Source of the DNA: a virus
Lineage: Duplodnaviria; Heunggongvirae; Uroviricota; Caudoviricetes
DNA length: 64,000 nt
Strand: one strand, 5' to 3'
Virus record (IMG/VR): IMGVR_UViG_2541047712_000002
Numbering within the stretch: the stretch's first letter is position 1; every line of letters begins with the position of its first letter. Under the pieces are notes generated by a model. The model was given only the letters and a program-made list of their open reading frames with translations, was not told the DNA's origin and searched no databases. This document shows positions 9,965-64,000 of this stretch, piece after piece. Both the position numbers and the translations under genes were made by a program.

Positions 9965-10065
9965 AAAGCCATTTCTGCTTAGTAACCAAACACATTAAAT
10001 AGGTAATGACTCACTTATTCATTTTAGCTATAGTCACGACACTTACTCACTTGAAAGGACTCAAT

Positions 10066-10191
10066 ATGGGAAACAAACGTAAACAGGCGCGTCGCGCAGC
10101 TCGTCAGGCAGTGAAGTCAAAGCCACGCATCCACGGCTACGAAATTGACACAATCATCGTTAATGAACAGCAGTTGCACGAGGTGAAGTGA
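10066..10191 (+). CDS. small basic protein
   Basis: MGNKRKQARRAARQAVKSK...; stop overlaps glutaredoxin ATG (TGATG). Confidence 0.3.
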   Translation: MGNKRKQARRAARQAVKSKPRIHGYEIDTIIVNEQQLHEVK

Positions 10192-10436
10192 TGAAAGTCG
10201 TTATCTACGGACGAGATAACTGCTCATACTGCAAACGTGCGGTCGAGCTGGCGAAGCAACTAAAGGGACATGGCTACGGTGATTATGAGTACATCGACAT
10301 CACTACTGCCGGTATCGATAAGGAAAAACTTAGCGAAATTATTGGTAAACCGGTAGAGACTATCCCCCAGGTATTGATCGATGGCCAACCGATTGGCGGA
10401 TACACAGAACTTGCAGCTTACATAAATTTGTTATGA
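10191..10436 (+). CDS. glutaredoxin-like protein (NrdC/NrdH-type redoxin)
   Basis: CSYC (CxxC) active site near N-terminus, ~81 aa, glutaredoxin fold pattern. Confidence 0.8.
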   Translation: MKVVIYGRDNCSYCKRAVELAKQLKGHGYGDYEYIDITTAGIDKEKLSEIIGKPVETIPQVLIDGQPIGGYTELAAYINLL

Positions 10437-10643
10437 CTAGTATGGCCGCTAGCCACACCATCCTTGATTAAAAAAAACACAATCGTTATAAGGAGCAATC
10501 TTCATTGTTGATAAGACGACTTAACTATACTTATCCTATACCTCAGGTGTTATGTTATAACATTTGATACTTGGGGAAGATTATGTTACTTAAAGCATTA
10601 AGGATTGGATTGATCGCAGGCATCTTTTGTACGTGTACAACGT

Positions 10644-10868
10644 ATGTCGCTGGAAAAAACAGTAGATGTTAAATTCCCGTCTGAAAAAGATAAAGTAGCA
10701 TACTCGGACGTCATAAAAGGTTTTGACTATAAAACTTATAAATTTCGCGCGAAGAAGGGACAACACCTTCAGATATTACTATCAAATGAATGGAGTGAAC
10801 ATATCCATATCTCTTTGGGCCAAGCATCGAAGATTAGATTGTTCTTGATAGAAGCTCACCTTGTCTAA
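10644..10868 (+). CDS. hypothetical small protein
   Basis: 74-aa ORF in AT-rich region. Confidence 0.25.
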   Translation: MSLEKTVDVKFPSEKDKVAYSDVIKGFDYKTYKFRAKKGQHLQILLSNEWSEHIHISLGQASKIRLFLIEAHLV

Positions 10869-11042
10869 ATGAGCAAGCGAAATATATGCTTCATGAATCA
10901 GGCGTATATTAATTACGTGTAAGACAAACACGAAATAATGCAAGGGAAGATTAAAAGTAAAAATACAATATTGAACGTAAAATACACTAAGAGTTAGTTA
11001 TACAGAAAATTCAACTAAGCCGGGCAGTACTGACGTTGTGTC

Positions 11043-11073
11043 AACCTTCCATTTTCATGGAAGGTTTTTTTTT
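11043..11073 (+). terminator. Rho-independent terminator
   Basis: 10-bp stem aaccttccat/atggaaggtt, loop tttc, followed by 7-9 T. Confidence 0.7.
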
Positions 11074-11533
11074 GCTTGCGATATAACAATAGCAAACACT
11101 CATAATCTAAAAGTATTGAGTCTACATAAAACTCACGCCTTAACCTCATGACAATCAGGCAAAAATAACAATAGAAACTATTTAAAATTTTATTTTTTTT
11201 ATATTTAATCTAAACATTATTTTATCTTAACCCTTTGTTTTTTAAGAAATTCATGCAGATCACAAATATTTGAAAAACAATATTATTACCTGGCTTGTGT
11301 GTTTTTTATTGATTTTAAACACCACGATTATTGTCTTTGTCAGAATAATAGTCTAGGTTATTTGGCTTGTGCAGATCTTTTATCTATAATCGTTGTTTGA
11401 TGGGTTTATATTTTTCAGTAAACTTCAAAAAAAAACACGAATGTCTAACTAGGTTATATTCAGTTCATTTTTGTCAAATTATTAAATTATCACCTGGCTA
11501 AACTGATAACATTTACCTACTCAGGTGGCTGAA

Positions 11534-11821
11534 ATGAGGATTTCGTTAAATGAAAAAATAAAGGGAGAACGGTTTAATACGCCGGGAAACATGTCAAGGG
11601 AGCACTTTAACTTACTAATTGAGCTATCACCCATAAGTAGCGAGAAGGTAAGATTAGCTTTATACGATTTTTTCGTTGACGGAGTAACACGTAAGGAAGC
11701 GTGCACCAGACACAATGTTTCACAAGGATATTTTTCTATTAGTGTAAGAAAATTCATTCAGGTTAATGATAGAGTAACAAAGGCTGTTAAATATTACTTG
11801 CCGAAATACTTAATTGTATAG
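11534..11821 (+). CDS. PapB/FocB-family fimbrial transcriptional regulator
   Basis: NMSREHFNLLIELSPISSEKVRLALYDFFVDGVTRKEACTRHNVSQGYFSISVRKF matches the PapB family pattern; sits upstream of the fimbrial subunit gene. Confidence 0.65.
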   Translation: MRISLNEKIKGERFNTPGNMSREHFNLLIELSPISSEKVRLALYDFFVDGVTRKEACTRHNVSQGYFSISVRKFIQVNDRVTKAVKYYLPKYLIV

Positions 11822-11932
11822 CTCTGTTTTTTGATAATGGAGGTGGTTAAACAATAAAAACCGTAATATAAAACACATTCAGTTCTTAATATTTTATTTT
11901 TCCATTTAATTTTATTTAAAGATAGGTTAGAT

Positions 11933-12574
11933 ATGAAAAAGCTGACTCTTATTGCAACGTTAATGGCATCTGCTATGTCATTCTCATCTCACGCTGCTAC
12001 AACATCAGCAAGCGTGAATATTACCGGCTCGATCGTTCCATCTGCATGTGCAATTAGCGCCAGTGCAAATGGAGGTACTATTGACTTTGGGAAAATCCTT
12101 TCATCAGAACTTGGTGAGCAGGGTGTTACACGTAAGGCAAAGAACGATACTCTTACTATTACGTGTGATAAAGATACTACGGCCGTAGTAAAAGTTAGTG
12201 GAAGCAATGGTGTAGATGGCAACACTTATAATTCAGATAAAGACTTCGTTAAAATTGCTGTGCAATTTACCGACGTAAATGTCACTGGCGGTAATGCTAC
12301 AAATAAATTCCTCGTATCTAACGCAGCATCTGTAGATTTAGATAATCTGACGGCAGCAGGTTTTACCACCGCAGCAGGAAATAAACCGTTATTCCCGTTC
12401 AATGGAAACTATCTCGCCGTTGCTGATACAAACAATAGCGTTGGTACATTTAAGACATTGACTGCAAATTATAGCGTCAGCGCGGTAGTGCAAAACGCTT
12501 CTGCTAAACGAGCTCTTACCCAAGGTGAACAAACCTTCGGTGGCGCAGTTACATTCGAACTGAACTATCTATAA
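11933..12574 (+). CDS. fimbrial major subunit (chaperone-usher pilin)
   Basis: signal peptide MKKLTLIATLMASAMSFSSHA, Cys pair, C-terminal donor-strand-like ...FGGAVTFELNYL. Confidence 0.8.
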   Translation: MKKLTLIATLMASAMSFSSHAATTSASVNITGSIVPSACAISASANGGTIDFGKILSSELGEQGVTRKAKNDTLTITCDKDTTAVVKVSGSNGVDGNTYNSDKDFVKIAVQFTDVNVTGGNATNKFLVSNAASVDLDNLTAAGFTTAAGNKPLFPFNGNYLAVADTNNSVGTFKTLTANYSVSAVVQNASAKRALTQGEQTFGGAVTFELNYL

Positions 12575-12626
12575 CCCATAATTAATAAACAGTAACGGAG
12601 TAACCTCCGTTACTGTTATAAAAAAC

Positions 12627-13295
12627 ATGATCAAAAGAATATTTCTACCTATATTAATGAGCATTCCATGTTCAGTATATGCTTTAGGAATGCAACCTGA
12701 AACAACCGTTTTAATATTTAACGAAGAGAAGAATGAAGCTTCTATTTCTGTTAAGAATACAAACAGTGTGCCAAGCCTACTTCAAACAAAAATTGTGGAT
12801 ATAGGGGAAGCTGAAAATGTTCTAGTATTATCTTCACCATCAATAGTTAAAATAGAACCAGGAGAGTCTCAAATAGTAAGATTCTTTTTGAAAAAGAATT
12901 CTGATTTTGATACTCAGATACTTAAGAGAGTAAGATTTTTAGGTGTGCCTGCAAAGCAAGAAAGCAACAAAGAGAATTCATCTTTAACTTTTACAGTAGG
13001 TCAAAGTATCCCTCTTCTGATAAACCCTGTGGGGCTAAAAGTTGATCGAGAACCATGGAAACACTTAACGTATAGTTTCGATGGAAGAAATATTATTATT
13101 TCCAACCCATCTAAATATATCGTTAGAATGTATCCTGAAGTTAAAGTAAATGGAAAAAAAATAAAAGTCGAGCAGTCATATATTACCCCTAGAACAAAGC
13201 TGACCATTAAGTATGAGAGACCGCCATCTGAAATAACAATTGTACCAGTTGGTTTATATGGTGAACTTAGAGATGAATATCAAATCAAGAATTAA
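12627..13295 (+). CDS. periplasmic fimbrial chaperone (PapD-like)
   Basis: signal peptide, position between pilin and usher. Confidence 0.7.
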   Translation: MIKRIFLPILMSIPCSVYALGMQPETTVLIFNEEKNEASISVKNTNSVPSLLQTKIVDIGEAENVLVLSSPSIVKIEPGESQIVRFFLKKNSDFDTQILKRVRFLGVPAKQESNKENSSLTFTVGQSIPLLINPVGLKVDREPWKHLTYSFDGRNIIISNPSKYIVRMYPEVKVNGKKIKVEQSYITPRTKLTIKYERPPSEITIVPVGLYGELRDEYQIKN

Positions 13296-15669
13296 AATAT
13301 CTAAAAAATTATTAGCCGTTTTTATCTCTTTATATGTATCAAATGTTTACGCAGAAGCCTATTATTTTGATGATATAGAGTTGAAAACTATTGGATTATC
13401 AAAAGATGCAGGTAACACCTTATTAAAATCTGATAGATTTCAACCCGGGACTTATCATGTAAATATAGTTTTAAATAATTTGCCTACCAATTACCATGGA
13501 AAAATTCTTATTAACAATAACGGTTCTCCTTGTATCACAGGTTCGTTGCTGGAGGACATAGGAATAAATATAAGCAGGTTGGCATTCGACCATGACTTGT
13601 GTTTGAAAGAGTCTCATAAGGAAGGTGTCTTTTTTTATACTAAACCAAAAAGCCAGTCCATTGAAATATATGTCCCTATTAGTTATCTTTTATCTAATGA
13701 AAGAACATATAGCCATGGTGGTACTGCAGCTATTTTTAACTATAACATTCATGCATTAAATTCACGAGGAAAATTTGGTAACACGAATAACTACACAGCT
13801 TTTCTTACATCCGGATTTAACACTGACGATTGGATATTTCGTAACAAAACTATCGTAAGTTCCTATGATGGAAATAACGACATTAAAAACTCTGAATTAT
13901 TTGCCCAAAAAACTTTTGATGGGAGTGGTAAAACGCTAAAAGTCGGTAGTATAGATTCATTTGACCAGTTTTATGGTATGTCTTTGATTGGTTTAAATTT
14001 GAGTCCAGAATCAACATTTTCTAGTGGAATGTCCACTACAATAACAGGTTTTTCTAATGATGACTCTCAAGTGGAGATCTATCAGGCAGGGCAGCTTGTG
14101 TATGTAGGGCAAGTACGGGCAGGCCGTTATAATATTGACTCAGTACCTGTTCTTAACACTCAAACCCCTTTCGAGGTTGTTTTAGTTAATCAAAATGGAA
14201 CGAGATCAAAAAGAACAATAACAACTGCGGAGGCACTTATAAACTTAAAACAAAAACAAAGCAATGGCTTTTCATTGTCTATTGGAAAAGCGAACGATTT
14301 TAAAAGCTCAATATTTAATGAACCTGTTGTATTAACTACGAATTATGGTTGGGATACCCTTGGTAATTACACTTTTAGCAGTGGCAGCTTAATTACAAAT
14401 CAATTCTATTCATTGGCTGGCAGTGTTACATACTCATCATCGAGTAAGAATAATATTACTTTAACTAATTATGTGTCGTATTTAGATTTCAAAGATAATT
14501 TGAATAAAAAACGTATTGGAAACAGTTCAAGCATAACTCTTTCAAATCAATTTTACGACAATGTTAAAATGACGAACGCTTTTATTTATAGAACAAGTGG
14601 CTATAGAGGGATTGAAGATTTAAGCTCAGATGATTTCTGGAATTATAAATGGCAACAAACTAATAGTATATTTGCATCGTTGAAAAGTTTTGGCACCTTT
14701 GGTCTTACATATTCATTGAATGAGAGAAGTGGTCATCGTGAAAACAGCTACGGTGTGTCATGGGGAACAAACATCTATAAAGCTTATTTGAGCACAAGCA
14801 TTCAAAAGCAGCGTGTAAAATATAAAGATGATTATTCTAATGAAACTAGGTTTTATGCCCAGCTATCAATTCCTTTATCCAATAACCAAGGGATAAACTC
14901 GTCATATTCTTCTGGCAAAAAATGGAGTCGGACTGCTGTTGACTATCGGCAATATAATAGTAACACATTTAACTATGGCCTCGGTTATGCAAATGAGCAA
15001 TATGCTTCCACATCTATCAATGCAGGTTACATAGAGGCATCTAAAACATTCAGGACAACTCATGTTGGAGCAAGATACAATTTTAACCAAAACTATAAAT
15101 CACTAGCAAGTTATGCAAGCGGTGGATTACTGATAAATAATAATGCAATCACTTTATCGCCATATGAAATTGGTGACACCTTTGCCTTGATAAGAGTTGG
15201 AAATTATCCCGGTATAGAATTACAAACACCAAACGGTAAGGTATGGACTGATAATCGAGGTAATGCTGTAGCCTCTAACTTGAATCCATATACTGCAAAC
15301 CAAATTCAAGTAGTACCAGAAAACTCACCTCGTAATATAGATGTAATGCAAGGCATAAAAAAGTCGACTCCATTTAAAGGAAGCGTTAATCAAATAAGAT
15401 TTGATGCTAAGAAAGTCCAGAGATTATTGGTATATGCAGTAGACGCGCTGAATAAACCTTTACCTTACAACGCCGAAGTAGTAAATCTGGATGATAACAC
15501 AATTATGGGATTTGTAGATCATGATGGTTTAATATTCTTCAGTGACATACCATCAAAAGCTGTTAAGGTAAATATCACACAAAATCAAAGTTGCATAATT
15601 GATTTTAGCAAGTATAAAAAAACAGAAGTTAATGAAATATTTAGCACGACACATCTAACTTGTAAATAA
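13273..15669 (+). CDS. outer-membrane fimbrial usher
   Basis: ~800 aa, signal peptide, N-terminal YYFDD...FQPGTYHVNIVLNN usher motif, C-terminal Cys pair; start taken at ATG 13273 rather than the overlapping track start 13240. Confidence 0.8.
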   Translation: MNIKSRIKISKKLLAVFISLYVSNVYAEAYYFDDIELKTIGLSKDAGNTLLKSDRFQPGTYHVNIVLNNLPTNYHGKILINNNGSPCITGSLLEDIGINISRLAFDHDLCLKESHKEGVFFYTKPKSQSIEIYVPISYLLSNERTYSHGGTAAIFNYNIHALNSRGKFGNTNNYTAFLTSGFNTDDWIFRNKTIVSSYDGNNDIKNSELFAQKTFDGSGKTLKVGSIDSFDQFYGMSLIGLNLSPESTFSSGMSTTITGFSNDDSQVEIYQAGQLVYVGQVRAGRYNIDSVPVLNTQTPFEVVLVNQNGTRSKRTITTAEALINLKQKQSNGFSLSIGKANDFKSSIFNEPVVLTTNYGWDTLGNYTFSSGSLITNQFYSLAGSVTYSSSSKNNITLTNYVSYLDFKDNLNKKRIGNSSSITLSNQFYDNVKMTNAFIYRTSGYRGIEDLSSDDFWNYKWQQTNSIFASLKSFGTFGLTYSLNERSGHRENSYGVSWGTNIYKAYLSTSIQKQRVKYKDDYSNETRFYAQLSIPLSNNQGINSSYSSGKKWSRTAVDYRQYNSNTFNYGLGYANEQYASTSINAGYIEASKTFRTTHVGARYNFNQNYKSLASYASGGLLINNNAITLSPYEIGDTFALIRVGNYPGIELQTPNGKVWTDNRGNAVASNLNPYTANQIQVVPENSPRNIDVMQGIKKSTPFKGSVNQIRFDAKKVQRLLVYAVDALNKPLPYNAEVVNLDDNTIMGFVDHDGLIFFSDIPSKAVKVNITQNQSCIIDFSKYKKTEVNEIFSTTHLTCK

Positions 15670-15683
15670 GCTTTGAGGATCTC

Positions 15684-16199
15684 ATGTTTAAATTTTTTAT
15701 ATTGACATGCTCTTTGTTTTTATGCACAACCTGTTTTGCAGCAGAGTGTTCTATAACCAGCTCGCCAAATAATATATCTTTAGGTGATTTTTCCTTTGGT
15801 TCTCTAACTAAGGAAAAGGTAGCAGATCGATATTATTACACCATGAAAAAAGATATTATGATTAGTGCAAAATGTAGGAATGCATCTAACATATCATTTG
15901 TCTATTCTGCACCATATAACGGTATGGGTTTTACAATTGGTGGTGTTGATGGTTATTATACAATCAAAGTAAATAAGTTTATAGTTAATGGGGTTAGTAG
16001 GGAAGTTAGGTATGTAGACACTAACAAGAAAGTTGATTTTATTTTACCTGAGACCGCAGTTCACACTGCGATTGGAGGTGAAGATTATAGCGTTGACGTT
16101 AACTTAATGCTAAACATAGCTTTCTATTTTAATCCAAATACATCCTTAGGCAATTACAGTATTTTTACAACTGGCGAGTTTCATCTCCAAGCTCTTTAA
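15684..16199 (+). CDS. fimbrial minor subunit / putative tip adhesin
   Basis: signal peptide MFKFFILTCSLFLCTTCFA, last gene of the chaperone-usher operon. Confidence 0.6.
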   Translation: MFKFFILTCSLFLCTTCFAAECSITSSPNNISLGDFSFGSLTKEKVADRYYYTMKKDIMISAKCRNASNISFVYSAPYNGMGFTIGGVDGYYTIKVNKFIVNGVSREVRYVDTNKKVDFILPETAVHTAIGGEDYSVDVNLMLNIAFYFNPNTSLGNYSIFTTGEFHLQAL

Positions 16200-16462
16200 T
16201 AGGAGCTTTTCGGCCATGATTTAACCACTATATTATGGCCATTTTTTACCCCCCCCCTTATCTTCACTGAAAAATTTTGATAGCACGCAATAAGGGTTAG
16301 GAGTGATGTTAGATTTTCTTCAGGCCCATAGAATGATTCCATACTTACTATGTATGGAATCATTACTAAAAATGAGTTACTTTGACTCTTGATCCTATAA
16401 GAATCTATGCCTAATATACTGTTTACTTATACAGTGTATCGACGTAACTCGGTGATTGTCAT

Positions 16463-17566
16463 ATGAAAAATAGCTTTGACAGAGCACGCGCAGCGGAGAA
16501 CACCTCAAAAGAGGCGATTGAGTATCTCGAAAGAGCATCTCAAATGCAGGCCGTTATGATCTCGCAGGTTAGCAATGACATGAGATTCTCAGACGCATTC
16601 ATGTTATTCACTCGCTTATCTCTGCTGATAACAAGACGTCGACCAGAGATCGCTGTTCATTGTATTTTGATACATGTTTTGCCGCACATTGCAGATATAA
16701 AAGTAAGTGACATTAATAGGTTCATGGTGAACCAACTGGTCAACCCACTAATACTGGATGGCAAAATTGTTATGGGCCGCCGCGTTTTCTCTCTGATGAA
16801 GCAGTTCCTTAGCTGGTGTGCCTTCCAGGGGATGATCGACGTATCACCATTAAACGATATGTCACTGAATAAAGTTGCCGGTGGCGCAAAGCCAACACCT
16901 CGCGAACGGAAGCTGACCGACGCAGAGGTATGGGTGTTCTGGAATATCTGGGACTACTTCAATGTGTGCGCAGGTACAAAATGGGCAGCCAGGCTATGTC
17001 TTGTATCCGCAAGACGACCTGATGAAGTACTGCGGGCCAGAAAAAGTGAGTTCAACCTTCAGCGTGGAGTTTGGAATCAAGGCAAGAGGAACAAATCTGC
17101 CCGTGAGCATTCGCTGCCTTTAAGCACATTAATGCGCACATGTATTGAAGAGTTGTTCGAATATGGTAAAGACAGCCAGTGGCTTGTGCCTTCGAATAAA
17201 AAAATCGGGAAAGACCTTCCTATGTCTAAAGTGGCAATAGCCCAGGCATTACGTCGTATTCTGGAACGACCAGAACTGATGGAGCTTGAGCCATTTACAC
17301 CCCGAGATTTGCGCCGTACTGCGCGTAGTTACTTCCCAGCATTAGGCATAAGCCAGGAGGTATCACGTAAAATCATGAACCACAGTCTTGAGGGGATAGA
17401 TCGGGTCTACGACCGGCACGATTATATGGACGAGATGCGAGACGCCTTAGAAAGTTTCTCGACGTACATCGCATCAATCGTAGAGCAACCCGATTTAGAC
17501 GAAATTGACCACAAATTTAAGGGAGATCGTCTATCAACAGAGCTTATTCGTGTAAATTTTTCATAG
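16463..17566 (+). CDS. tyrosine recombinase / integrase (P4-like)
   Basis: C-terminal catalytic region ...FTPRDLRRTARSYF...NHSLEGIDRVYDRHDY; first His of the HxxR box is replaced by Arg. Confidence 0.75.
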   Translation: MKNSFDRARAAENTSKEAIEYLERASQMQAVMISQVSNDMRFSDAFMLFTRLSLLITRRRPEIAVHCILIHVLPHIADIKVSDINRFMVNQLVNPLILDGKIVMGRRVFSLMKQFLSWCAFQGMIDVSPLNDMSLNKVAGGAKPTPRERKLTDAEVWVFWNIWDYFNVCAGTKWAARLCLVSARRPDEVLRARKSEFNLQRGVWNQGKRNKSAREHSLPLSTLMRTCIEELFEYGKDSQWLVPSNKKIGKDLPMSKVAIAQALRRILERPELMELEPFTPRDLRRTARSYFPALGISQEVSRKIMNHSLEGIDRVYDRHDYMDEMRDALESFSTYIASIVEQPDLDEIDHKFKGDRLSTELIRVNFS

Positions 17567-17947
17567 AGACTTTATGGCCTCAACAACCTTTTGTGATGCG
17601 CCTTTCTCTTTACCGAATCGCTCGTTATATGCAGCAAGAACCTGTTTTTCGTCCTCGTTAAGAGGAGCAGTGCCTTCTTTGTATAAAAATGCTGCGAGTT
17701 CGGGTTGGCGTTCTTCCAGCACCATCATCATAAGACGACTTGGCTCAATACCCAGTGCCAGCGCCAGCGGACGAACCTTATCGATAGGCAAAGGAATTTT
17801 GCCGCTTTTAATTAAAGAAAGGTTGTTGGCGTTTTTATACCCAATTGTTTTGGCTATCTGGGCCTGGCTCATAGGTGAGGATTCAATCAACCCTGCGATA
17901 AAAGCAGCGTAGCGACTTTCTATAAATTCAATCTTGTTATCAGACAT
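17561..17947 (-). CDS. helix-turn-helix DNA-binding protein (XRE/Cro-like regulator)
   Basis: HTH segment SQAQIAKTIGYKNANNLSLIKSGK; convergent with integrase. Confidence 0.55.
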   Translation of the reverse strand: MSDNKIEFIESRYAAFIAGLIESSPMSQAQIAKTIGYKNANNLSLIKSGKIPLPIDKVRPLALALGIEPSRLMMMVLEERQPELAAFLYKEGTAPLNEDEKQVLAAYNERFGKEKGASQKVVEAIKSL

Positions 17948-18198
17948 GGTTACAACCTTTGCGCGTTCAATTCTCTCTGGTAAGTGCTTACCGATATTAC
18001 ATCAAAGGTTAGGGTTGTAAAGCTATTATCATTTTTTTCGATAGGCACTTAAAAGACCGGTTAAAGGCCATTGCACGGAGAAAAATTAGCCCAAAACAGG
18101 TAAGAAAATCAACTTGCATATGATATGAATGTATTCAGTATTGATACAAATTTTAGTAGTATTCCTTACCATAGTATAAGTTAGAATGGATTGATTGA

Positions 18199-18411
18199 AT
18201 GAACACCACTATTTCCAGCCTAATCGCTCTTGAGATCGGACACGTACAGAAATTAGCTGATGAGTGTGTAGCTGACATCCTCACCGATCTACCGAATGAG
18301 CAGATTCAGGTTGGTGTGAATGACACAACTGGATTTATATTCGAACTTAACAACAAACGCTTCACGCTTCTCAATACCGGCTCCGGGTCTTTAGCCGTCA
18401 GAATCTGTTAA
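18199..18411 (+). CDS. hypothetical small protein
   Basis: 70-aa ORF. Confidence 0.3.
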   Translation: MNTTISSLIALEIGHVQKLADECVADILTDLPNEQIQVGVNDTTGFIFELNNKRFTLLNTGSGSLAVRIC

Positions 18412-18509
18412 CCCCTCTTCTCCCTGCGCGAATGGCTTAGTTCCCTGTTCGCGCAGTGCTACATTAAACACACTAGTAAATAATTTGTTTTCATAACAAA
18501 GGATTAGCC

Positions 18510-20618
18510 ATGTCTAAAAAACGTTCCATCAAAGAGGTTCAGGACTTCCGTGACAGTGTAAAACGAGTAGTCGCTCTCCTTTCAGGTAAAAACATCCCTG
18601 TTGCAGAACGAGGGGACGACGCTTATGTACGCTATAACGATGATGGAGAGCCAATTCTCGTAAACATCCCATCAATCCCGGATAACGCAACACCGGCATT
18701 GATGAATGCTGTGCGCGGATTTCTCGATCATGAGGTTGCTCACATTTTGTTTACCGATATTCGTGTGTCCAACAAAATGAGAGAAAAAGGACGCGTTCCT
18801 TCCTGGTCGCTATGGAATGCCTTAGAAGACGTGTTCATCGAGCGAAAAATGGGTCAGGTCTTTAACGGAACAAGACGTAATCTGATGGCAACTCAGCGCC
18901 TTATAATCGAAAAAGTCTTTAAACCAAAGGCTTCAGAGGCTATTGCTTATTGTGGCAAAGATCAGCGCGCGCTTTTTCTAAACTTCTTTCTCTGTCCGGT
19001 TGTAAGAGCCTGGGATGGCCAAGCACCGTTCGTAGATTTCATGGATGAATATTGGCCTGTCATTGAGAAACCAATTTCATTATTAAAAGAACATGGTATC
19101 GATGTGGCCGTGCGTAACATGTCTTGCACCGAGGATTGTGTAAAGGTGGCTGCGACCATAGCTAAGATCCTCAAAGACACTGAAAGTGAAAGCAAAGGTA
19201 AGGAGTCAGCTCCGGGAAAAACTTCCGATCCTTCAGACGCTGACCAGACGGATGCCTCTGGAGAAAACAATGAAGACAACGAAGATCATGAGACACCCTC
19301 ATCGTTAGATAATCACAAATCTATTAAATCAGAGTCACATAGTAAGCACAAACATGATAATAACGAAAGTGATGGTTCAGATAATCCTGAATCATCAGAA
19401 ACAATATTCGATGATACAGAAAATGATAAAGCGGTATCAGATTCTGATGCTTCTGATAACGCGGCGTCAGAATCATTAACCGCTGACCACGAAAAAAGAA
19501 AAACGACAGAAGACGGCCCTTCAGACATTCCAACTCCGTCAAAAATGAGTCTGGAAGAGGCTTTAGAGGAGTTGGATAGCATGGAAGATGAAGTCGGAGG
19601 CATGACAGAAGATGCGCTATCCGAAACGATTAAAAGCGAGTTAACAGAAAGCTCGAAAAGCGAATACAGGCCATACAATCGCTCATACGACTTCATCGGC
19701 TCGATTGATCAGGCAGAAGCCCATATCAAACGGCTTATTAAAACATTCTCCGATATTGATTTAGGTGGATATCCAATCAGCCGTTATCGCATCGTTCCTG
19801 AAGGCAACCAACTCTTCGACAAATATATTGAAAAGCACCTTTCGTCAGGTGTTTCGTCGACGCTGGCAAAAGACCTGGAACGTGCAATAGCAAGCAGAAA
19901 CAGAGTTCAGTTTATACCTGGCCAGCGTCGGGGGCGCATTCATGGTTCAAGTATCTACAGATTAACAATGAATGATGATCGCGTGTTTCGTAAAAAAGAA
20001 GAATCTAAAGCCGTTAACGCCTGTGTTCAACAAGTGATTGATTTATCGGGTTCAATGAGTGGCAAAACGATAAAACTAGCTCTTGCAAGTGCATATACCA
20101 TCGCCGATGCACTTGATCGAATAAATGTTCCCAACATTATCACCGGCTTCACTACATTTGGCAGTCATATGGCAGCAGGAGAACTTAAGGCTATCAAATA
20201 TGAGTTCTCTCGCTTTGAATCTTTAATGCTACCTATCATCAAAAATTGGAATGAAAAAGCAAATTCTCGCGAAGTTCGCTCACGTATGGGGTGCGTAGGC
20301 TACACATTCCCACTTCTTAATAACGTGGATGGTGAAAGCATAGCCAGCCTTGCATCGTTATTTTCCGGTCGCTTGGAGGACAGGAAGATCATGCTTGTTC
20401 TGAGCGATGGCGCGCCGTGGGCTGTTGGGAGAGGTTTTGACGCCCATTTGCGTTCGGTTACGAAGCAAATTGAAACGCAGACTGACATTGATTTGATGGC
20501 AATTGGCATCATGACTGATGCACCGGAGAGATTTTACGCAAATCATGCCCTGGTAACTAGTGTTGATAGTCTTGGTTCATCTGTAGTTACTGAACTATCT
20601 CGTATCATTTTGAAGTAA
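18510..20618 (+). CDS. vWA-domain protein (CobT-like)
   Basis: MIDAS motif DLSGSMSG in C-terminal domain; long acidic Ser/Asp/Glu-rich low-complexity linker. Confidence 0.7.
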   Translation: MSKKRSIKEVQDFRDSVKRVVALLSGKNIPVAERGDDAYVRYNDDGEPILVNIPSIPDNATPALMNAVRGFLDHEVAHILFTDIRVSNKMREKGRVPSWSLWNALEDVFIERKMGQVFNGTRRNLMATQRLIIEKVFKPKASEAIAYCGKDQRALFLNFFLCPVVRAWDGQAPFVDFMDEYWPVIEKPISLLKEHGIDVAVRNMSCTEDCVKVAATIAKILKDTESESKGKESAPGKTSDPSDADQTDASGENNEDNEDHETPSSLDNHKSIKSESHSKHKHDNNESDGSDNPESSETIFDDTENDKAVSDSDASDNAASESLTADHEKRKTTEDGPSDIPTPSKMSLEEALEELDSMEDEVGGMTEDALSETIKSELTESSKSEYRPYNRSYDFIGSIDQAEAHIKRLIKTFSDIDLGGYPISRYRIVPEGNQLFDKYIEKHLSSGVSSTLAKDLERAIASRNRVQFIPGQRRGRIHGSSIYRLTMNDDRVFRKKEESKAVNACVQQVIDLSGSMSGKTIKLALASAYTIADALDRINVPNIITGFTTFGSHMAAGELKAIKYEFSRFESLMLPIIKNWNEKANSREVRSRMGCVGYTFPLLNNVDGESIASLASLFSGRLEDRKIMLVLSDGAPWAVGRGFDAHLRSVTKQIETQTDIDLMAIGIMTDAPERFYANHALVTSVDSLGSSVVTELSRIILK

Positions 20619-20713
20619 TTAAAACAGCCTTAATGATAAGTAACTACTTACCATAGTTAATGGTATATTTATATAAGAACTTGAACGCTCATTAGAGAAC
20701 AAAGGAAAAGCGC

Positions 20714-21949
20714 ATGACTACTACTGCACTGCAAAATGATAAAAATCCTTCTGATTACCTTGTTTGCAAGTGGTGCGGCAAATCATTTCACTATTTTAAG
20801 TCCCATGTAGCCAATGGTAATTGCGAGGGCATTCCTGAGTCAGTAAAAGATGCCGATCCTGACACCGTACTGAAAATGTACACAACGCAGTTTCCAGATG
20901 AACCAACGCTATCGAAAAAGGCACTTGATGCAATTCAAGCTAAACGTGCCGAGCAAAAAAGCGAAATGGCGAAATCTTCTGGCTTGACCAGTAGCCCAGG
21001 CTACACAGGCACAGTTGAGTACAAGACAGATCTGGTCGCAGCTCACGAACTGCTAAACGTAACGGTGGAAGAACTCGGAACAAAACGTGGGACGCCGCTC
21101 ATGGTTAGCGTCAACGTCAATACGCCGTATCCAGAGTTCGTTCCAGAAGTGAAGAAGGGCTACGTATATGGCGACTTCGAACTGATCAAAGATATTTTCA
21201 TGATGCTTGAACTTGGCATACCTGGCTATTTGTGGGGTCATGCAGGAACAGGCAAATCGTCATTGCCTACACAGCTATGTGCTTTGCTCAATCGTCCGTT
21301 GATCCGTGCCCAACATACAGCATCAATGGAAGAGGCTCATGTTACGGGACAAATTCTGGCGCGTGATGGCTCTACGTATTTCGAGCCTGGCTTGCTTGCG
21401 CTCGCAATGAAGCATGGCTGGGTTTACCTCGCGGATGAATACGACTTTGCGTTTCCACAAATTCTTGGCGTGTATCAGCCAGTGCTGGAAGGTGAAGCGT
21501 TAGTCATCAAAGAGGCAACTCCAGAATGGCGTCGCATTACTCCGCATGAACGGTTTGCTTTCATTGGCACTGGCAACACGAACGGATCTGGTGATGAAAC
21601 CGGCTTGTACCAGGGTACAAACATCCAGAACGCCGCGAACTTTTCGCGTTTTGGCATCGTTTCGAATGTGAAATACATGAGCAAAGAGGCAGAGATCAAC
21701 ATGTTGATAAATGCCGGTATCGTGGATGAATACGCAGAAAAGATGGTTAAGTTTGCCGGTATCGTTCGCGATGGATACGAAGAACACCTTATCAGTCAGC
21801 CAATTGGCCCTCGTGAACTTTTGTTGTCGGCCAAGATTGGAATGATGCGAGGCGACTTTGTGACAGGTATTGAGCGTTCTTTCATTAACAAACTCCCTTC
21901 AGCTTCTGCACAAGCGGCTCGTGAAGTTGTTCAAAAAATATTTGGTTGA
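20714..21949 (+). CDS. AAA+ ATPase (CobS/MoxR-like), partner of the vWA protein
   Basis: Walker A GHAGTGKSS, Walker B YLADEYDFA; N-terminal Cys/His-rich segment CKWCGKSFHYFKSH. Confidence 0.7.
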   Translation: MTTTALQNDKNPSDYLVCKWCGKSFHYFKSHVANGNCEGIPESVKDADPDTVLKMYTTQFPDEPTLSKKALDAIQAKRAEQKSEMAKSSGLTSSPGYTGTVEYKTDLVAAHELLNVTVEELGTKRGTPLMVSVNVNTPYPEFVPEVKKGYVYGDFELIKDIFMMLELGIPGYLWGHAGTGKSSLPTQLCALLNRPLIRAQHTASMEEAHVTGQILARDGSTYFEPGLLALAMKHGWVYLADEYDFAFPQILGVYQPVLEGEALVIKEATPEWRRITPHERFAFIGTGNTNGSGDETGLYQGTNIQNAANFSRFGIVSNVKYMSKEAEINMLINAGIVDEYAEKMVKFAGIVRDGYEEHLISQPIGPRELLLSAKIGMMRGDFVTGIERSFINKLPSASAQAAREVVQKIFG

Positions 21950-22129
21950 TCGTGCGTAAAGGATGTTTCGGCTCTCTTATCGCTGCTTCTGAAACTGGTA
22001 AGGCTTGTCTGGTATGTCCAGACAAGCCCGATTGTCACCAATCAGCAAAAGAAGTTGCGATTTCGATGTATGGGAAGTTCGTAGGCTTCCCCAATGACAA
22101 AATCAAAAAAACCATAAAGGTAAAAACAC

Positions 22130-25100
22130 ATGAAAGCACTGATGGTTCGAACTGACTTCTCACTTGGGGAGTCGGCTCTAAAAGCAGAAAACGCGGTGAA
22201 GATTGCCAGAGAAGCTGGCTACACCGCTGTAATTTCAGCAGATAGCATGAATATTGCGAGTGTTATTCCACTACAACGTGCCGCTGGTGACGACATGGCG
22301 GTTATTTGTGGTGTGAAACTAAATATCGTTGATGATCCCACATACGAGCACCGGGCTAAACTTGCTAAAGAATCTATGAGATGTATGGAATCATTAGAGC
22401 GGGGACGTAACTACTCGTTTACCGCTCTAATTAAAAATGAGCAAGGATATCGCGACATCTGCGAACTAATGACGGTGGCCAACACACGAGAACAGTTCTA
22501 CTTTGTACCGCGTCTCTCGCTCGAACAGTTGGTTTCTACATATGCCAAAGGCAACATCATCCTGCTCACTTCCGACATCGGTAGCGTGTTCCAACGCAAC
22601 GATTTTGCAAAAATCATAAGCTCACTGATTACAGCGGGCGGGAAAGACAACTTCTATAGCGTGGTTTATCCGCACCCTACCCCATTCTACGACCAGATTA
22701 ACGTCCGAGCGATGAAAGTAGCCAGCGCACTGAAAATAGAGCCAGTAGCGTTCTATCCCGCTTATTACGAATCGATCGACGATGCAGACATTAAAGACAT
22801 TGCGCACATGGTTACGAACAACATAAAAATCGACCAGCCGCATCGTCTGCGTATCCCCCACCAGCGAGATAACGCCATCAATGGTCGTCGCCATCTCCTT
22901 GAGGCGCTTAAAGCCTTCTCCGTTCGCATGGATGTGCCGGTAACAGCTGCAATGGCCTCAACAACGCAGGACTCCATTATCGATGCCTGCACATGGCGCT
23001 GGCATGAATTGCCACCAGCACTGCCCAAGATGGCAGACGACGAACCTGCAACGCTGATGAAACTGGCTGTTGCAGGGCTGCGTAAACGTCTTACCACAAA
23101 AGAGTTTGGATACACACCACCTGCTTCTGAGAACAGGGTTTATGTTGAGCGGCTAAAGTACGAAATGAACACGCTGACTCGCCTGGGATTTTGTGGTTAC
23201 TTCCTGATGGTACGCGATCTGATGAATCACAGCCGTGAAACTGGCATTCCTGTCGGGCCTGGTCGTGGTTCCTCTGCCGGTTCTCTGGTGGCGTGGTGCA
23301 TAGGCATAACCAACGTCGACCCAATCCGTCACGGTCTTCTGTTTGAGCGTTTCATCAACCCTGAGCGTCTCGACTTGCCGGATGCGGACTTGGACTTCAG
23401 CCAGGCACGTCGCCATGAGGTGATCGAGTATCTGAATGAACGCTACGGCGAAGATTACGTTGCAGGCATTCCGAACTTCACCTACCTGGGCGCAGCCTCT
23501 GCACTACGTGACACCGCTCGTATTTATGGTGTGGAGTCCGCAGATATGGCGGTATCAAAAGAACTGAAGAACGTCGAGGATGATAGCCTTCCATTGGAAG
23601 AGCTGCGCGAACAACTGGCAAGTCTCGACAAATACGCAACAAAATATCCTGATGCATTCAATGCAGCCTGCAAGTTACAAAGCCTTATGCGTGGCTTTGG
23701 TAGACATGCGGCAGGGATGATTGTAGCAGGTGTTCCTCTGACAGAACGTACACCGGTTGAGCGCCGTGGTGACGCGCGTTGTATCGCATTTGACAAGCGT
23801 TACTGCGAGGCTATGGGCCTAATTAAGCTGGACGTGCTTGGCCTGGCAACTCTCGATTTGCTCGATAGTGCAAAACGCTACATAAAAGAGAACACAGGTG
23901 AAGATATCAATCTTGATGCCATTTCTCTTGAAGATCGCAAGGTGCTGGATGGTTTTGCTGCAGGGTATACACAGGGCGTATTCCAGCTGGAGTCCGGCCC
24001 CATGCGCAAGCTGCTTAAAGATCTAGGCGGTGGCATTGAGCCAATGAGCTTTAAAACCGTTGTCGCCACGACCGCACTCTTCCGACCTGGCCCGATCCAA
24101 TCCGGCATGTTGGACGACTATGTTTCTGTCGCCAAAGGCTTTATGACGCCGGAATCATTACACCCCGTTCTTGATGAACTTACCGCGGAAACAAATGGCG
24201 TGATTCTCTATCAGGAACAGACGATGAACGCGACTCGATTGCTTGCCGGCTTCACAATGGCTGAAGCTGACGGTGTGCGTTCCGCAATCGGTAAGAAGAA
24301 CATGGAAAAAATGAAGAGCATGGGCGAGAAGTTCATCGTTCAGGCTCAAGCTGGCTGGATAGACGTTGAGCTGGAAGATGGCACTACACAGCGCATTCAC
24401 CGTGCGGAACATTTTAAATGCGAAGACGGAACTCTGAAAACTGTCGAAGAGGCACTTGAGCACGGCGCAAAACTACCTATAAACGCAGTACGCGTTACAG
24501 CGTCACATCCAGGGCTATCAGAGATGAAAGCGAAGGAGATCTGGACCGCATTCGAAAAAAATGGTGCCTACCAGTTCAATAAATCACACTCCGTTGCTTA
24601 TTCTTTAATCAGTTATCAGTCTATGTGGCTAAAGACGCACTACCCTGCTGAGTTCTTCGCAGCTGCGCTCACCATTCTGGGCGAGGATAAGCATCAGGGG
24701 CTGGTGAAGGATGCGCTGACCTATGGCATTCGCGTATTGCCACCAGACGTTAATGTGTCATCTAACCGAATTGAGATCCGCACACTCGAAGACGGCAGTC
24801 AGGCACTGTATGCGCCATTCTCTGCTGTGAAAGGCTGTTCTGAAAATGGTTGTCAGGCAATTATGCGTGCGCGTGAGAAAGTTGGTGGCAAATTCGAGTC
24901 AGTGGCACAATTCGATGAAGCGGTCGAGAAGCGTGCATGTAACAGTCGTGTACGCGAGTCGCTTCATAAAGTAGGGGCTTTTGCGTCAATTGAGCCAGGC
25001 AGTCTGCCAGCAACTGATCCTGAACGACTGCGCGACCAGGCTGAGCTGATGGGCAATCTCATCATTGACGCTGTTAAAGCATCACGTCCGTTCGAAATGA

Positions 25101-25648
25101 ATCCTAAGCGTTCTGCCGAAATCAACGTACTCATGACACGTATGGCGGCTGAAATGGGCTTGGGTGAGGAGTTGATACGCCCGACTATTGGTATTAAACC
25201 CAAAATCATGATCATTCTGGACAATGCGAACGGCAATGACGCTCGTACCGGCTACTTCATGGAGAACGGATACGACGACTTTAAGGCAAAACTACTGACA
25301 GTTGGAGATCTGCGCATGGGCGATCTTTATGTCACGGGTGTTTGTAAGAAGGTTAAGGACAAAGAGAAAGACTATACCAAAGACGAGATAGGCCAGTTCA
25401 CAGACTTTATGCGGGAAGAAATTAATCTTGTACGACCAACCTACATTTTGACGTGTGGTAGTCGTTCAACCGCACTATTTAACAATAAGAGTAAACCATC
25501 AGATCTGATTGGTCGTAAGGAGTACTTCCCAGAGCTTGATGCAACCGTCTTCTACGGATTTAACCCGAATATCCTGTACTTCCGACCGGAAGAAGGAGAG
25601 CGACTGGAGGCCATTCTGGCTGATATCGCGGAGACAATAAATAAGTAA
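22130..25648 (+). CDS. dnaE: DNA polymerase III alpha subunit (DnaE family)
   Basis: 1172 aa; N-terminal PHP domain; GPGRGSSAGSLVAWCIGITNVDP and FERFINPERLDLPDADLDF palm motifs. Confidence 0.9.
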   Translation: MKALMVRTDFSLGESALKAENAVKIAREAGYTAVISADSMNIASVIPLQRAAGDDMAVICGVKLNIVDDPTYEHRAKLAKESMRCMESLERGRNYSFTALIKNEQGYRDICELMTVANTREQFYFVPRLSLEQLVSTYAKGNIILLTSDIGSVFQRNDFAKIISSLITAGGKDNFYSVVYPHPTPFYDQINVRAMKVASALKIEPVAFYPAYYESIDDADIKDIAHMVTNNIKIDQPHRLRIPHQRDNAINGRRHLLEALKAFSVRMDVPVTAAMASTTQDSIIDACTWRWHELPPALPKMADDEPATLMKLAVAGLRKRLTTKEFGYTPPASENRVYVERLKYEMNTLTRLGFCGYFLMVRDLMNHSRETGIPVGPGRGSSAGSLVAWCIGITNVDPIRHGLLFERFINPERLDLPDADLDFSQARRHEVIEYLNERYGEDYVAGIPNFTYLGAASALRDTARIYGVESADMAVSKELKNVEDDSLPLEELREQLASLDKYATKYPDAFNAACKLQSLMRGFGRHAAGMIVAGVPLTERTPVERRGDARCIAFDKRYCEAMGLIKLDVLGLATLDLLDSAKRYIKENTGEDINLDAISLEDRKVLDGFAAGYTQGVFQLESGPMRKLLKDLGGGIEPMSFKTVVATTALFRPGPIQSGMLDDYVSVAKGFMTPESLHPVLDELTAETNGVILYQEQTMNATRLLAGFTMAEADGVRSAIGKKNMEKMKSMGEKFIVQAQAGWIDVELEDGTTQRIHRAEHFKCEDGTLKTVEEALEHGAKLPINAVRVTASHPGLSEMKAKEIWTAFEKNGAYQFNKSHSVAYSLISYQSMWLKTHYPAEFFAAALTILGEDKHQGLVKDALTYGIRVLPPDVNVSSNRIEIRTLEDGSQALYAPFSAVKGCSENGCQAIMRAREKVGGKFESVAQFDEAVEKRACNSRVRESLHKVGAFASIEPGSLPATDPERLRDQAELMGNLIIDAVKASRPFEMNPKRSAEINVLMTRMAAEMGLGEELIRPTIGIKPKIMIILDNANGNDARTGYFMENGYDDFKAKLLTVGDLRMGDLYVTGVCKKVKDKEKDYTKDEIGQFTDFMREEINLVRPTYILTCGSRSTALFNNKSKPSDLIGRKEYFPELDATVFYGFNPNILYFRPEEGERLEAILADIAETINK

Positions 25649-25654
25649 TAAAGA

Positions 25655-25679
25655 AAACCCGCCTGTTGGCGGGTTTATA
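25655..25679. terminator. terminator hairpin after dnaE
   Basis: aaacccgcc-tgtt-ggcgggttt hairpin then T/A-rich. Confidence 0.55.
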
Positions 25680-25951
25680 AAGAATTATGGCGCTTGTTGA
25701 GGAAGTCACTCCTCTTACGCACTTTGTTTTGCCATGCCGGCAGTTAGCTTCTGCCTTTGACTATTCATGCGGCAACCCCGCATTTCGCCACAATGGGCAA
25801 TTCACTTTTATGGAATAAACTGGCCGTTGTGTCGATTTAATTAGCATGGCCTTACCATGCTAATTTATTCAACTTGTACAATCCTACAAATCTATCCACT
25901 CAGGCTTACACCGTCTTCGTTATTGTAGAAATGAGGATCATCAGCGTTGAA

Positions 25952-26167
25952 TCAGCTTAGAGCAACGACATTTGCTGCTGCTGGGCCTTTAGCACCATTC
26001 TCGATAGAGAATTCGACCTGCTGGCCTTCTTCCAAAGTGCGGAAATTATTACTCTGAATTGCCGAAAAATGTACAAAAACATCTTTACTGCCATCAGCAG
26101 GAGAAATAAAGCCAAAGCCTTTATCAGAGTTAAACCATTTTACTAAACCAGTCATTTTATTAGACAT
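25952..26167 (-). CDS. cold-shock protein (CspA family)
   Basis: [21 protein letters not shown]...[11 protein letters not shown] motifs; ATG at 26167 with RBS, rather than the longer track ORF. Confidence 0.85.
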
Positions 26168-63011: not shown

Positions 63012-64000
63012 ATGACCCAAGTCGCGAAGAAAATTCTGGTGACGTGCGCGCTGCCGTACGCTAACGGCTCAATCCACCTCGGCCATATGCTGGAGCACAT
63101 CCAGGCTGATGTCTGGGTTCGTTACCAGCGAATGCGCGGCCACGAGGTTAATTTCATCTGTGCCGACGATGCCCACGGTACGCCGATCATGCTGAAAGCA
63201 CAGCAGCTTGGTATCACACCGGAGCAGATGATTGGCGAAATGAGTCAGGAACACCAGACTGATTTCGCAGGCTTTAATATCAGCTACGACAACTATCACT
63301 CGACGCACAGCGAAGAGAACCGTCAGTTGTCTGAGCTTATCTATACTCGCCTGAAAGAGAACGGTTTTATTAAAAACCGCACCATCTCTCAGTTGTACGA
63401 CCCGGAAAAAGGTATGTTTCTGCCGGATCGTTTTGTAAAAGGCACCTGCCCGAAATGTAAAGCGCCAGATCAATACGGCGATAACTGTGAAGTCTGCGGC
63501 GCAACATATAGCCCGACTGAATTGATCGAGCCGAAATCGGTGGTTTCTGGCGCTACCCCGGTAATGCGTGATTCCGAACACTTCTTCTTTGATCTGCCTT
63601 CTTTCAGCGAAATGTTGCAGGCATGGACCCGCAGCGGCGCGTTGCAGGAGCAGGTGGCGAACAAAATGCAGGAATGGTTTGAATCCGGCCTGCAACAGTG
63701 GGATATCTCCCGAGATGCGCCTTACTTCGGTTTTGAAATTCCGAACGCGCCGGGCAAATATTTCTACGTCTGGCTGGACGCGCCGATTGGCTACATGGGT
63801 TCCTTCAAGAATCTGTGCGACAAGCGCGGCGATACCACCAGCTTCGATGAATACTGGAAGAAAGACTCCACCGCCGAGCTGTACCACTTCATCGGTAAAG
63901 ATATTGTTTACTTCCACAGCCTGTTCTGGCCTGCCATGCTGGAAGGCAGCAACTTCCGCAAGCCGACCAACCTGTTTGTTCACGGCTATGTGACGGTGAA
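63012..64000 (+). CDS. metG: methionyl-tRNA synthetase, 5' portion (runs off the window)
   Basis: [35 protein letters not shown] with HIGH motif; absent from the ORF track because no stop lies in the window. Confidence 0.9.

Follow-up and report, generated by a model that had tools for sequence, protein, structure and literature searches.

A CobT-like and CobS-like gene pair in an Escherichia coli SSU5-type phage-plasmid: a probable MoxR-type motor and adaptor with a conserved zincin motif

Paired CobT and CobS genes have been known from phage genomes since 2011 or earlier. In virome surveys they are routinely counted as vitamin B12 auxiliary metabolic genes, and cobS marks marine cyanomyoviruses. 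We describe here a CobT-like/CobS-like pair encoded at positions 18510 to 21949 of a 64,000-nucleotide (nt) viral DNA (IMG/VR record IMGVR_UViG_2541047712_000002), the whole of which is referred to below as the window. The CobT-like protein carries an HExxH zincin motif that is absent from three cellular CobT proteins, and the two gene products very probably form a motor-adaptor pair of the MoxR type.

The gene pair and its element

The window is part of a common E. coli SSU5-type phage-plasmid, as established by nucleotide identity and by gene order shared with SSU5-group records. Positions 18000 to 26000 are 97.7% identical to Escherichia phage Cyrano, 94 to 95% identical to further E. coli SSU5-like phages, and 80.6% identical to Salmonella phage SSU5. 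The same segment is 98.9% identical to E. coli plasmids of 108 to 113 kb, with 784 matching plasmid records, and positions 6200 to 16500 match plasmid pTHO-010-2 at 99.9%. Gene order is identical in the window, Cyrano, and the matching plasmid records. Both proteins fall in database clusters of thousands of sequences, annotated as "cobaltochelatase CobT-related protein," "porphyrin biosynthesis protein," or "AAA family ATPase," and this recurrence excludes chance as the source of the two open reading frames (ORFs). For the window itself, the pair is thus an ordinary, previously sequenced feature of a common E. coli phage-plasmid. Neither CobT-like nor CobS-like genes are mentioned in a 2026 preprint on phage-plasmid heteroresistance, the subject of which is a different, 49-kb family.

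A first-pass annotation, made from the letters alone, had proposed two ORFs here, a 702-amino-acid (aa) protein with a vWA domain and an AAA+ ATPase, and its coordinates for both were exact. The CobT-like protein matches the Pfam CobT N-domain over residues 9 to 291 (E value, 5.8e-26) and CobT_C, a VWA domain, over residues 492 to 701 (E value, 2.2e-83). The AlphaFold model of the full protein consists of an N-domain, a linker with predicted local distance difference test (pLDDT) values below 50 at residues 252 to 337, and a VWA C-domain. The linker (residues 233 to 345), described earlier as acidic and of low complexity, contains 19% Ser, 17% Asp, and 11% Glu and has a net charge of −21. The best structural matches of the C-domain are the VWA domain of NorD in NorQD (E value, 1.4e-8) and the MIDAS domain of midasin. 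Conservation was assessed in an alignment of 70 full-length CobT-like relatives that are 27 to 62% identical to the window protein. The D511-x-S513-G514-S515 core of the MIDAS (metal ion-dependent adhesion site) is invariant in this set, and T548/T549 and D633 are invariant or nearly so, which together with the CobT_C match bears out the MIDAS-containing vWA domain of the first-pass annotation. A segment at about residues 462 to 503, which aligns with the shaft of Brucella CobT, is also well conserved in the phage clade, including G471, G475, L482, and F493.

The CobS-like protein matches Pfam AAA_5 at residues 173 to 293 (E value, 2.1e-15). Its Walker A (G175 to K181) and Walker B (D241-E242) motifs, both seen in the first pass, are invariant in 20 relatives of 44 to 81% identity, as are N288, R312, and R367, which align with sensor-1 (N186), the arginine finger (R210), and sensor-2 (R271) of Brucella CobS. 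Residues 142 to 411 as a whole align with Brucella CobS residues 39 to 315. The preceding extension distinguishes the phage protein from cellular CobS, which is 323 to 345 aa long in the three sequences fetched (Rhizobium, Cereibacter, and Pandoraea). Its Cys/His-rich character, noted in the first pass, is real and reduces to a near-invariant, zinc-knuckle-like motif, C18-x2-C21-x4-H26-x4-H31 (nt 20765 to 20806), accompanied by a conserved Y56/P61/S67/A70 patch. A related-locus search led by the window protein returned near-identical SSU5-like loci only; an alignment led by a distant member was used instead and provided 80 distant environmental viral loci whose ATPases are 39 to 47% identical to that of the window. 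The knuckle-like motif is present in 76 of these 80 loci, and the other four have C-x2-D. The extension matches no Pfam family at E values up to 10, and a database search with its 140 residues alone recovered fragments of the same protein only, with no other domain architectures.

The zincin motif of the CobT-like protein

The most informative feature of the pair is an intact HExxH zincin motif in the N-domain, which the first-pass annotation overlooked. D73, H74, E75, and H78, together with E106, D107, and E111 on the following helix, are invariant in the 70 full-length relatives. When the N-domain alone was searched against 1.84 billion cluster representatives, 1,138 relatives were obtained. 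HExxH is kept in 148 of the 150 best cluster representatives, the exceptions being one fragment and one sequence with HQVAL. The motif also occurs in the CobT-like proteins of the unrelated Rhizobium phage RHph_X66, cyanophage S-RIM14 (annotated as "peptidase"), and Vibrio phage ICP2.

For comparison, three bacterial genes with the annotation CobT or cobalt chelatase that adjoin an annotated cobS on plasmid records (Rhizobium, Cereibacter, and Pandoraea) were aligned directly, because alignments of the N-domain to canonical CobT were weak; by profile, the canonical N-domain can be aligned only from residue 100 onward. HExxH is absent from all three cellular proteins. In the joint alignment, they carry S/A, M/F/A, and R/Q in the columns of H74, E75, and H78 (D-S/A-M/F/A-A-L-R/Q against DHEVAH) and retain Glu in the columns of E106 and E111. 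According to a 2026 preprint on the structure of Brucella CobSTN, the N-domain of CobT is similar to an M48C peptidase domain (bioRxiv 10.64898/2026.07.21.739949). Taken with the loss of the motif in the three cellular proteins, this resemblance gives a contrast in which, judged by sequence, the phage clade is the intact version and the three cellular CobTs have a peptidase-like domain without the zinc-binding motif. In a limited search of the related literature, this contrast was not found stated. An intact phage site and a dead cellular one suggest how the cobaltochelatase adaptor may have arisen.

The N-domain modeled alone (pLDDT, 92.3) consists of a helix, a three-stranded sheet, a helix at residues 62 to 81 that bears HExxH, and a helix at residues 98 to 117 that bears E106 and E111. 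In this model, the motif helices and the sheet follow the order expected of a gluzincin, and either E106 or E111 is a candidate zinc ligand. Comparison with zincin folds (M48, M56, minigluzincin, and SprT/Spartan) gave modest fold scores, with no Foldseek match. At E values up to 10, CobT is the only Pfam family that matches the N-domain, and phmmer against PDB sequences returned chance matches only. A PHROG "peptidase" family weakly matches residues 72 to 128 of the CobT-like protein. We put the chances that the zinc site is that of an active protease at about even.

Relation to cobaltochelatase

Pfam and NCBIfam homology and matches to the Brucella proteins agree with the earlier CobT-like/CobS-like assignment. 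Among solved structures, Brucella CobS (E value, 1.8e-25) and Brucella CobT (E value, 2.2e-17, C-terminal half) are closest in sequence. Scores against the NCBIfam equivalogs are 70.3 bits for TIGR01651 (CobT), for which the cutoff is 759, and 84.9 bits for TIGR01650 (CobS), for which it is 558.6. By these scores the pair is homologous, but not orthologous, to CobT and CobS of cobaltochelatase (EC 6.6.1.2). No cob gene is annotated in the two window-equivalent parts of the pTHO-010-2 record. Orthology to chromosomal CobST with a cob operon was thus not found, and because of the equivalog shortfall and the lack of annotated cob genes, the first-pass reading of the pair stands. Its further statement that such pairs are known from large phages, with an unresolved role, agrees with a literature in which the pair is widespread in phages and the functions given for it are proposals.

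The homology to CobS and CobT is real, and it underlies the proposal that the phage proteins act as auxiliary metabolic gene products, replacing or supplementing the host subunits, engaging host CobN, and raising cobalamin for nucleotide synthesis. This hypothesis has been stated for archaeal and bacterial tailed viruses (PMC8651126), and similar proposals appear elsewhere in the literature. The MIDAS and the shaft, which couple CobT to CobS and CobN, are conserved in the window pair. However, the AAA+ catalytic residues, the shaft segment, and the MIDAS are all common to the wider MoxR-VWA class and so do not by themselves prove membership among cobaltochelatases. Against the proposal, the scores reach only about a tenth to a seventh of the equivalog cutoffs, and neither cobN nor any other cob gene is annotated in the window-equivalent plasmid parts. 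The phage clade has both the zincin site and the zinc-knuckle extension of the ATPase, whereas the zincin motif is missing from the three true CobTs. The element also encodes its own ribonucleotide reductase, NrdAB, which is of class Ia; reductases of this class are B12 independent. The pair is found, too, in phages of Vibrio cholerae, a host that is not known to have the aerobic cobalamin pathway. E. coli is unable to make the CobN substrate, and B12 production in it required heterologous cobN, cobS, and cobT plus about 30 further genes (PMC6249242); on this basis, E. coli is without CobN and the aerobic cob pathway. Because of the equivalog shortfall, the lack of annotated cob genes, the class Ia reductase, and the need of E. 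coli for cobNST, the pair is very likely not a cobaltochelatase in this host. The metabolic proposal is extremely improbable here and, for this host, close to refuted.

On the comparison records, the cobS-cobT genes of the Rhizobium and Cereibacter plasmids adjoin J-domain and BolA-family genes, not other cob genes, and those of Pandoraea come after the urease accessory genes ureD/ureG.

Gene neighborhood and expression

The pair lies in a co-oriented block consisting of a 70-aa ORF, the CobT-like gene, the CobS-like gene, a 69-aa ORF, and a gene for DnaE (Table 1).

Table 1. Coordinates of the gene pair, its motifs and domains, and the neighboring genes in the window
Feature	Coordinates (nt)	Strand	Basis
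CobT-like protein, 702 aa, ATG start	18510–20618	+	Pfam CobT and CobT_C; phrog_1576 (E value, 8e-301); AlphaFold pLDDT, 84.4
N-domain, residues 1–232	18510–19205	+	Helix, three-stranded sheet, helical bundle; homologous to CobT N-domain
H74-E75-V-A-H78 (HExxH), after invariant D73	18729–18743	+	Conservation in relatives
E106-D107-x-x-x-E111 on next helix, candidate third zinc ligand	18825–18842	+	Invariant E106, D107, E111
Acidic, Ser/Asp/Glu-rich disordered linker, residues 233–345	19206–19544	+	Composition, pLDDT
Shaft-aligned segment, about residues 462–503	19893–20018	+	Profile alignment to 9uka_G; MAFFT alignment
VWA domain with MIDAS	19983–20612	+	D511-x-S513-G-S515 at nt 20040–20054; T548/T549; D633
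CobS-like AAA+ ATPase, 411 aa, ATG start	20714–21949	+	Pfam AAA_5; phrog_249 (E value, 2e-106)
N-terminal extension of ATPase, residues 1–140	20714–21133	+	Without counterpart in cellular CobS
Walker A, G175-HAGTGK181-S	21236–21259	+	Invariant in alignment
Walker B, D241-E242	21434–21439	+	Invariant in alignment
70-aa ORF, first of co-oriented block	18199–18411	+	phrog_2627
Divergent helix-turn-helix (HTH; XRE-type) regulator, putative repressor in Cyrano	17561–17947	−	Weak Pfam HTH_19; Cyrano annotation
Tyrosine integrase, upstream of pair	16463–17566		
69-aa Cys-rich ORF (C7, C21, C24, C30)	21946–22155	+	phrog_6337 (E value, 2e-44)
DnaE-type DNA polymerase III alpha subunit	22130–25648	+	Pfam PHP, DNA_pol3_alpha, finger, HHH_6

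Among the 80 distant loci, a CobT-like ORF was found in 74, in every case directly upstream of the ATPase gene and in the same orientation; the median gap is 110 bp. DnaE follows downstream on the same strand in 67 loci, and a homologue of the HTH regulator is present in 58. These loci and the window share genes for SSB, a UvsY-like protein, an exonuclease, RecA, and a ligase. Because so many replication genes are shared, the 80 loci represent one broad lineage and are not independent evidence. Three other, independent lineages are more informative. The order in Rhizobium phage RHph_X66 is XRE, hypothetical, CobT, CobS, sigma factor, hypothetical, and DnaE; in cyanophage S-RIM14 it is "peptidase," hypothetical, CobS, hypothetical, gp45 clamp, and clamp loader; and in Vibrio phage ICP2, CobT and CobS are followed by primase, helicase, and PolA. 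In myo-cyanophages, cobS is a near single-copy core gene whose function is stated as unknown (PMC9983427).

Expression data are available for the near-identical element Cyrano. In RNA sequencing of the lysogen grown overnight in LB, normalized counts were 7.8 for the CobT-like gene, 6.7 for the CobS-like gene, and 10.1 for DnaE against a floor of 5, compared with 96 for the putative repressor and 141 to 294 for HicAB (PMC9928086, S1 Table). The pair is therefore almost silent in the Cyrano lysogen. Between LB and 6 h in macrophages, log2 values in strain LF82 rose from 4.3 to 10.8 for CYRAN_46 (the homologue of the 70-aa ORF), from 5.6 to 10.3 for the integrase, and from 3.2 to 5.9 for the CobT-like gene, while DnaE was nearly unchanged (PMC9928086). 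The context in independent lineages, the silence in the lysogen, and the core status in cyanophages point to a lytic-phase function linked to the replication or early block. Together they also argue against a moron, a defense function expressed in the lysogen, and a role in plasmid maintenance.

The first-pass annotation had also likened the pair to MoxR-vWA modules of defense islands, a likeness that holds at the level of the class but not for a specific link to defense. The pair could be a MoxR-vWA conflict system brought along as cargo, or its protease could destroy host defense proteins; MoxR-vWA modules reportedly occur in conflict systems, and the region next to the pair carries variable cargo. 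PADLOC, however, gave a single marginal and unrelated match, to DrmE (E value, 8.1e-4), in the linker region of the CobT-like protein, and none for the ATPase. The pair belongs to the core gene set of strictly lytic cyanomyoviruses, and its near-background expression in the lysogen speaks against a role in host defense. We consider a defense or counter-defense function very unlikely, although a counter-defense protease overlaps with the explanation preferred below if the client is a host protein.

The strongest rival to that explanation is a chaperone and protease for virion assembly, in which the MoxR-vWA pair would fold or assemble the tail or tail fibers and the peptidase would process structural proteins. 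This role was proposed for the MoxR-vWA-metallopeptidase pair of jumbo phages by Iyer et al. in 2021 (PMC7824862), who cite a MoxR-vWA system required for tail development in the Acidianus two-tailed virus, and an intact zincin site would suit a processing protease. In every context examined, though, the pair lies in or at the head of a replication or early block and not in a structural module. Position is weak evidence on function, and since gene position alone speaks against assembly, this alternative ranks first among the rivals while still being unlikely.

Several observations concern the organization of the block. The 69-aa ORF, which has no Pfam or NCBIfam match, shares 4 nt with the CobS-like gene, at its stop codon, and 26 nt with the start of DnaE, and these overlaps suggest translational coupling. 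In distant relatives, other genes occupy the gap between the CobS-like gene and DnaE, whose median length is about 1.45 kb. A scan for promoters and terminators found fewer sites than in shuffled controls and was uninformative on operon structure. The strongest terminator-like hairpin of the region (positions 25655 to 25676; a 9-bp stem that includes 6 GC pairs) follows closely on the stop codon of DnaE; its score is for the minus strand, but it may be active in both directions.

Proposed function

The explanation that we favor, with somewhat better than an even chance of being correct, is that the pair is a phage MoxR-class motor-adaptor machine of the lytic replication program that acts on a protein rather than on a corrin. 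By analogy with the Brucella complex, a ring-and-shaft assembly of the phage proteins can reasonably be inferred. The CobS-like ATPase would form a hexameric ring, and the CobT-like protein would dock on it with the conserved shaft segment in the pore. The VWA-MIDAS face of the adaptor would capture a client protein, which ATP hydrolysis would then remodel. The HExxH...E site, lost from cellular CobT, is kept in the phage adaptor, so the client is probably also cleaved; less likely, it receives a metal from this site. These events would take place during the lytic replication phase.

Several points weigh against this explanation. In 128 plasmids of Acinetobacter baumannii (110 to 117 kb, e.g., NZ_CP038645.1), DQEVAK replaces DHEVAH. 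Both His ligands are gone in this lineage, which also includes viral contigs, while the remainder of both proteins, the MIDAS, and the adjacent "MoxR family ATPase" are retained, and the representative with HQVAL has likewise lost a motif His. Since the pair persists without the His ligands, as cellular CobT does, proteolysis is perhaps not the core activity; scaffolding by the N-domain may be the conserved core and catalysis an addition. The synteny with DnaE among the 80 loci largely reflects shared ancestry, and the proximity to replication genes in the three other lineages may reflect early or middle gene placement alone. No client protein was identified in this analysis.

A separate alternative is maturation of a metal center, in which the pair would open a phage metalloenzyme for loading with its cofactor and HExxH...E would hold the metal for delivery without cleavage. 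Candidate clients are NrdB, the PHP domain of DnaE, and an SbcD-like phosphoesterase. The nearest characterized relatives and structural matches (NorQD, CbbQO, and CobST-CobN) are all metal-insertion or metalloenzyme-activating pairs, and the element encodes several metalloenzymes as well as the iron-sulfur (Fe-S) carrier ApbC. The loss of HExxH in cellular CobT coincides with a CobN that carries the proposed cobalt-binding active site; with the cobalt site on CobN in cells, a metal site carried by the adaptor could, in the phage, take the place of a partner like CobN. No one metalloenzyme adjoins the pair across lineages, though, and DnaE is not present in the S-RIM14 and ICP2 neighborhoods examined. 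The invariance of E75 fits a catalytic base better than a mere set of ligands, and the Acinetobacter lineage kept the pair after losing the His ligands. We regard metal-center maturation as quite unlikely.

A more specific form of the motor-adaptor explanation is speculative, and we hold it to be distinctly doubtful. In it, the pair would serve as a zinc protease, powered by ATP and targeted through the MIDAS, at the onset of phage DNA replication; the C2H2-like knuckle of the ATPase would tether it to DNA or the replisome, a specific protein of the host or the phage would be extracted and cut, and cellular CobT would be its peptidase-dead descendant, recruited to cobalt chelation. If this were true, targets might include an obstacle at the replication fork, a host factor of replication or of the nucleoid, or a defense protein, and the pair would be a phage counterpart of the protease and AAA+ unfoldase systems formed by Spartan/Wss1 with p97.

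The pair itself was already known as a feature. The combination of vWA and metallopeptidase domains with a MoxR partner has been described since 2021 (PMC7824862), and the peptidase-like fold of canonical CobT since the 2026 CobSTN preprint. Added here are the contrast between the intact zinc site of the phage clade and its loss in three cellular CobTs, the observation that the ATPase has a conserved zinc-knuckle extension, and the case against a B12 role, which fails in this host. If the pair is a core remodeler or protease of the replication phase, metabolic inferences on B12 drawn from these genes are wrong for many hosts. Residues H74/E75, K181/E242, and D511 would then be concrete targets for mutation in a widespread, conserved phage machine.

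Other features of the element

A block of low GC content (0.34 to 0.35) at positions 8000 to 16300 contains, between grxA and the integrase gene, an inserted operon for chaperone-usher fimbriae. The operon encodes a PapB/FocB-type regulator, a DUF1120 subunit (11933 to 12574), a chaperone (12627 to 13295), an usher (13240 to 15669), and a 171-aa subunit (15684 to 16199). At least 80% of this stretch is covered by only six related plasmids, three of them at 99 to 100% coverage. Neither pMB5646_2 nor phage Cyrano has the block, which resembles adhesin cargo of the phage-plasmid.

Near the right end of the window, positions 61754 to 62854 and 63069 to 63983, both on the minus strand, hold copies of two chromosomal housekeeping genes, apbC/mrp for an Fe-S cluster carrier and metG for methionyl-tRNA synthetase. 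Their GC content (0.51) is like that of E. coli, and they adjoin an S24 peptidase gene on about 200 E. coli SSU5-like plasmids. A 779-aa ORF (30451 to 32790, plus strand) carries the annotation RecA in Cyrano and, in plasmids, "LAGLIDADG family homing endonuclease"; here an intein or a homing endonuclease has probably interrupted a recombinase.

Comparison with known systems

The best-characterized relative is the CobSTN complex of Brucella melitensis (PDB 9ujv and 9uka). Its CobS shares Walker A and B, sensor-1, the arginine finger, and sensor-2 with the window ATPase, and its CobT shares the N-domain, the disordered acidic linker (about 90 residues, to which residues 233 to 345 of the window protein correspond), the shaft segment, and the VWA-MIDAS domain. 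In Brucella, the CobT shaft (Q373 to R413), just before MIDAS residue D422, enters the CobS ring when nucleotide is bound; the small AAA+ subdomain is the binding partner of the CobT N-domain, and CobN lies near the MIDAS, flanked by both domains of CobT (bioRxiv 10.64898/2026.07.21.739949). The shaft-contacting R147 of Brucella CobS aligns with F247 of the window ATPase, so that details of the coupling differ. Further differences from the cellular systems are the added 140-residue extension with its C2H2-like motif in the ATPase, the HExxH kept in the N-domain where the three cellular CobTs have S/A-M/F/A-x-x-R/Q, a reversed gene order (T then S in the window, S then T in cells), and an element without an annotated CobN or cob pathway.

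NorQ/NorD (PDB 9qh6, 9qhd, and 9qhe) and CbbQ/CbbO likewise combine an AAA_5 ATPase with an adjacent VWA-MIDAS adaptor, and NorQ and CbbQ are weak sequence matches to the window ATPase. At about 270 to 281 aa, however, these ATPases are without the zinc-knuckle extension, and NorQD and CbbQO act on defined cellular metalloenzymes (NorB, which NorQD loads with iron, and Rubisco). The NorD and CbbO adaptors are not known to have a zincin N-domain. The gluzincins of the M48, M56, and minigluzincin groups (Ste24/ZMPSTE24, BlaR1, and projannalysin) and SprT/Spartan have no detectable sequence similarity to the window N-domain; unlike them, the window protein lacks transmembrane segments, carries a fused VWA domain, and has an AAA+ motor as its partner. 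AAA_5 matches in Staphylococcus Kayvirus and Listeria phages belong to a different system, in which the large neighbor in phage 812 has neither HExxH nor MIDAS.

The closest architecture is that of the group 2.2 jumbo phages, where a MoxR-class ATPase lies beside a vWA protein with an N-terminal metallopeptidase (PMC7824862); compared by description only, it is the same as that of the window pair, and the "peptidase" and CobS of cyanophage S-RIM14 fit it as well. The jumbo-phage pair has been proposed to act in virion assembly, whereas the window pair lies in the replication module of a 110-kb temperate phage-plasmid.

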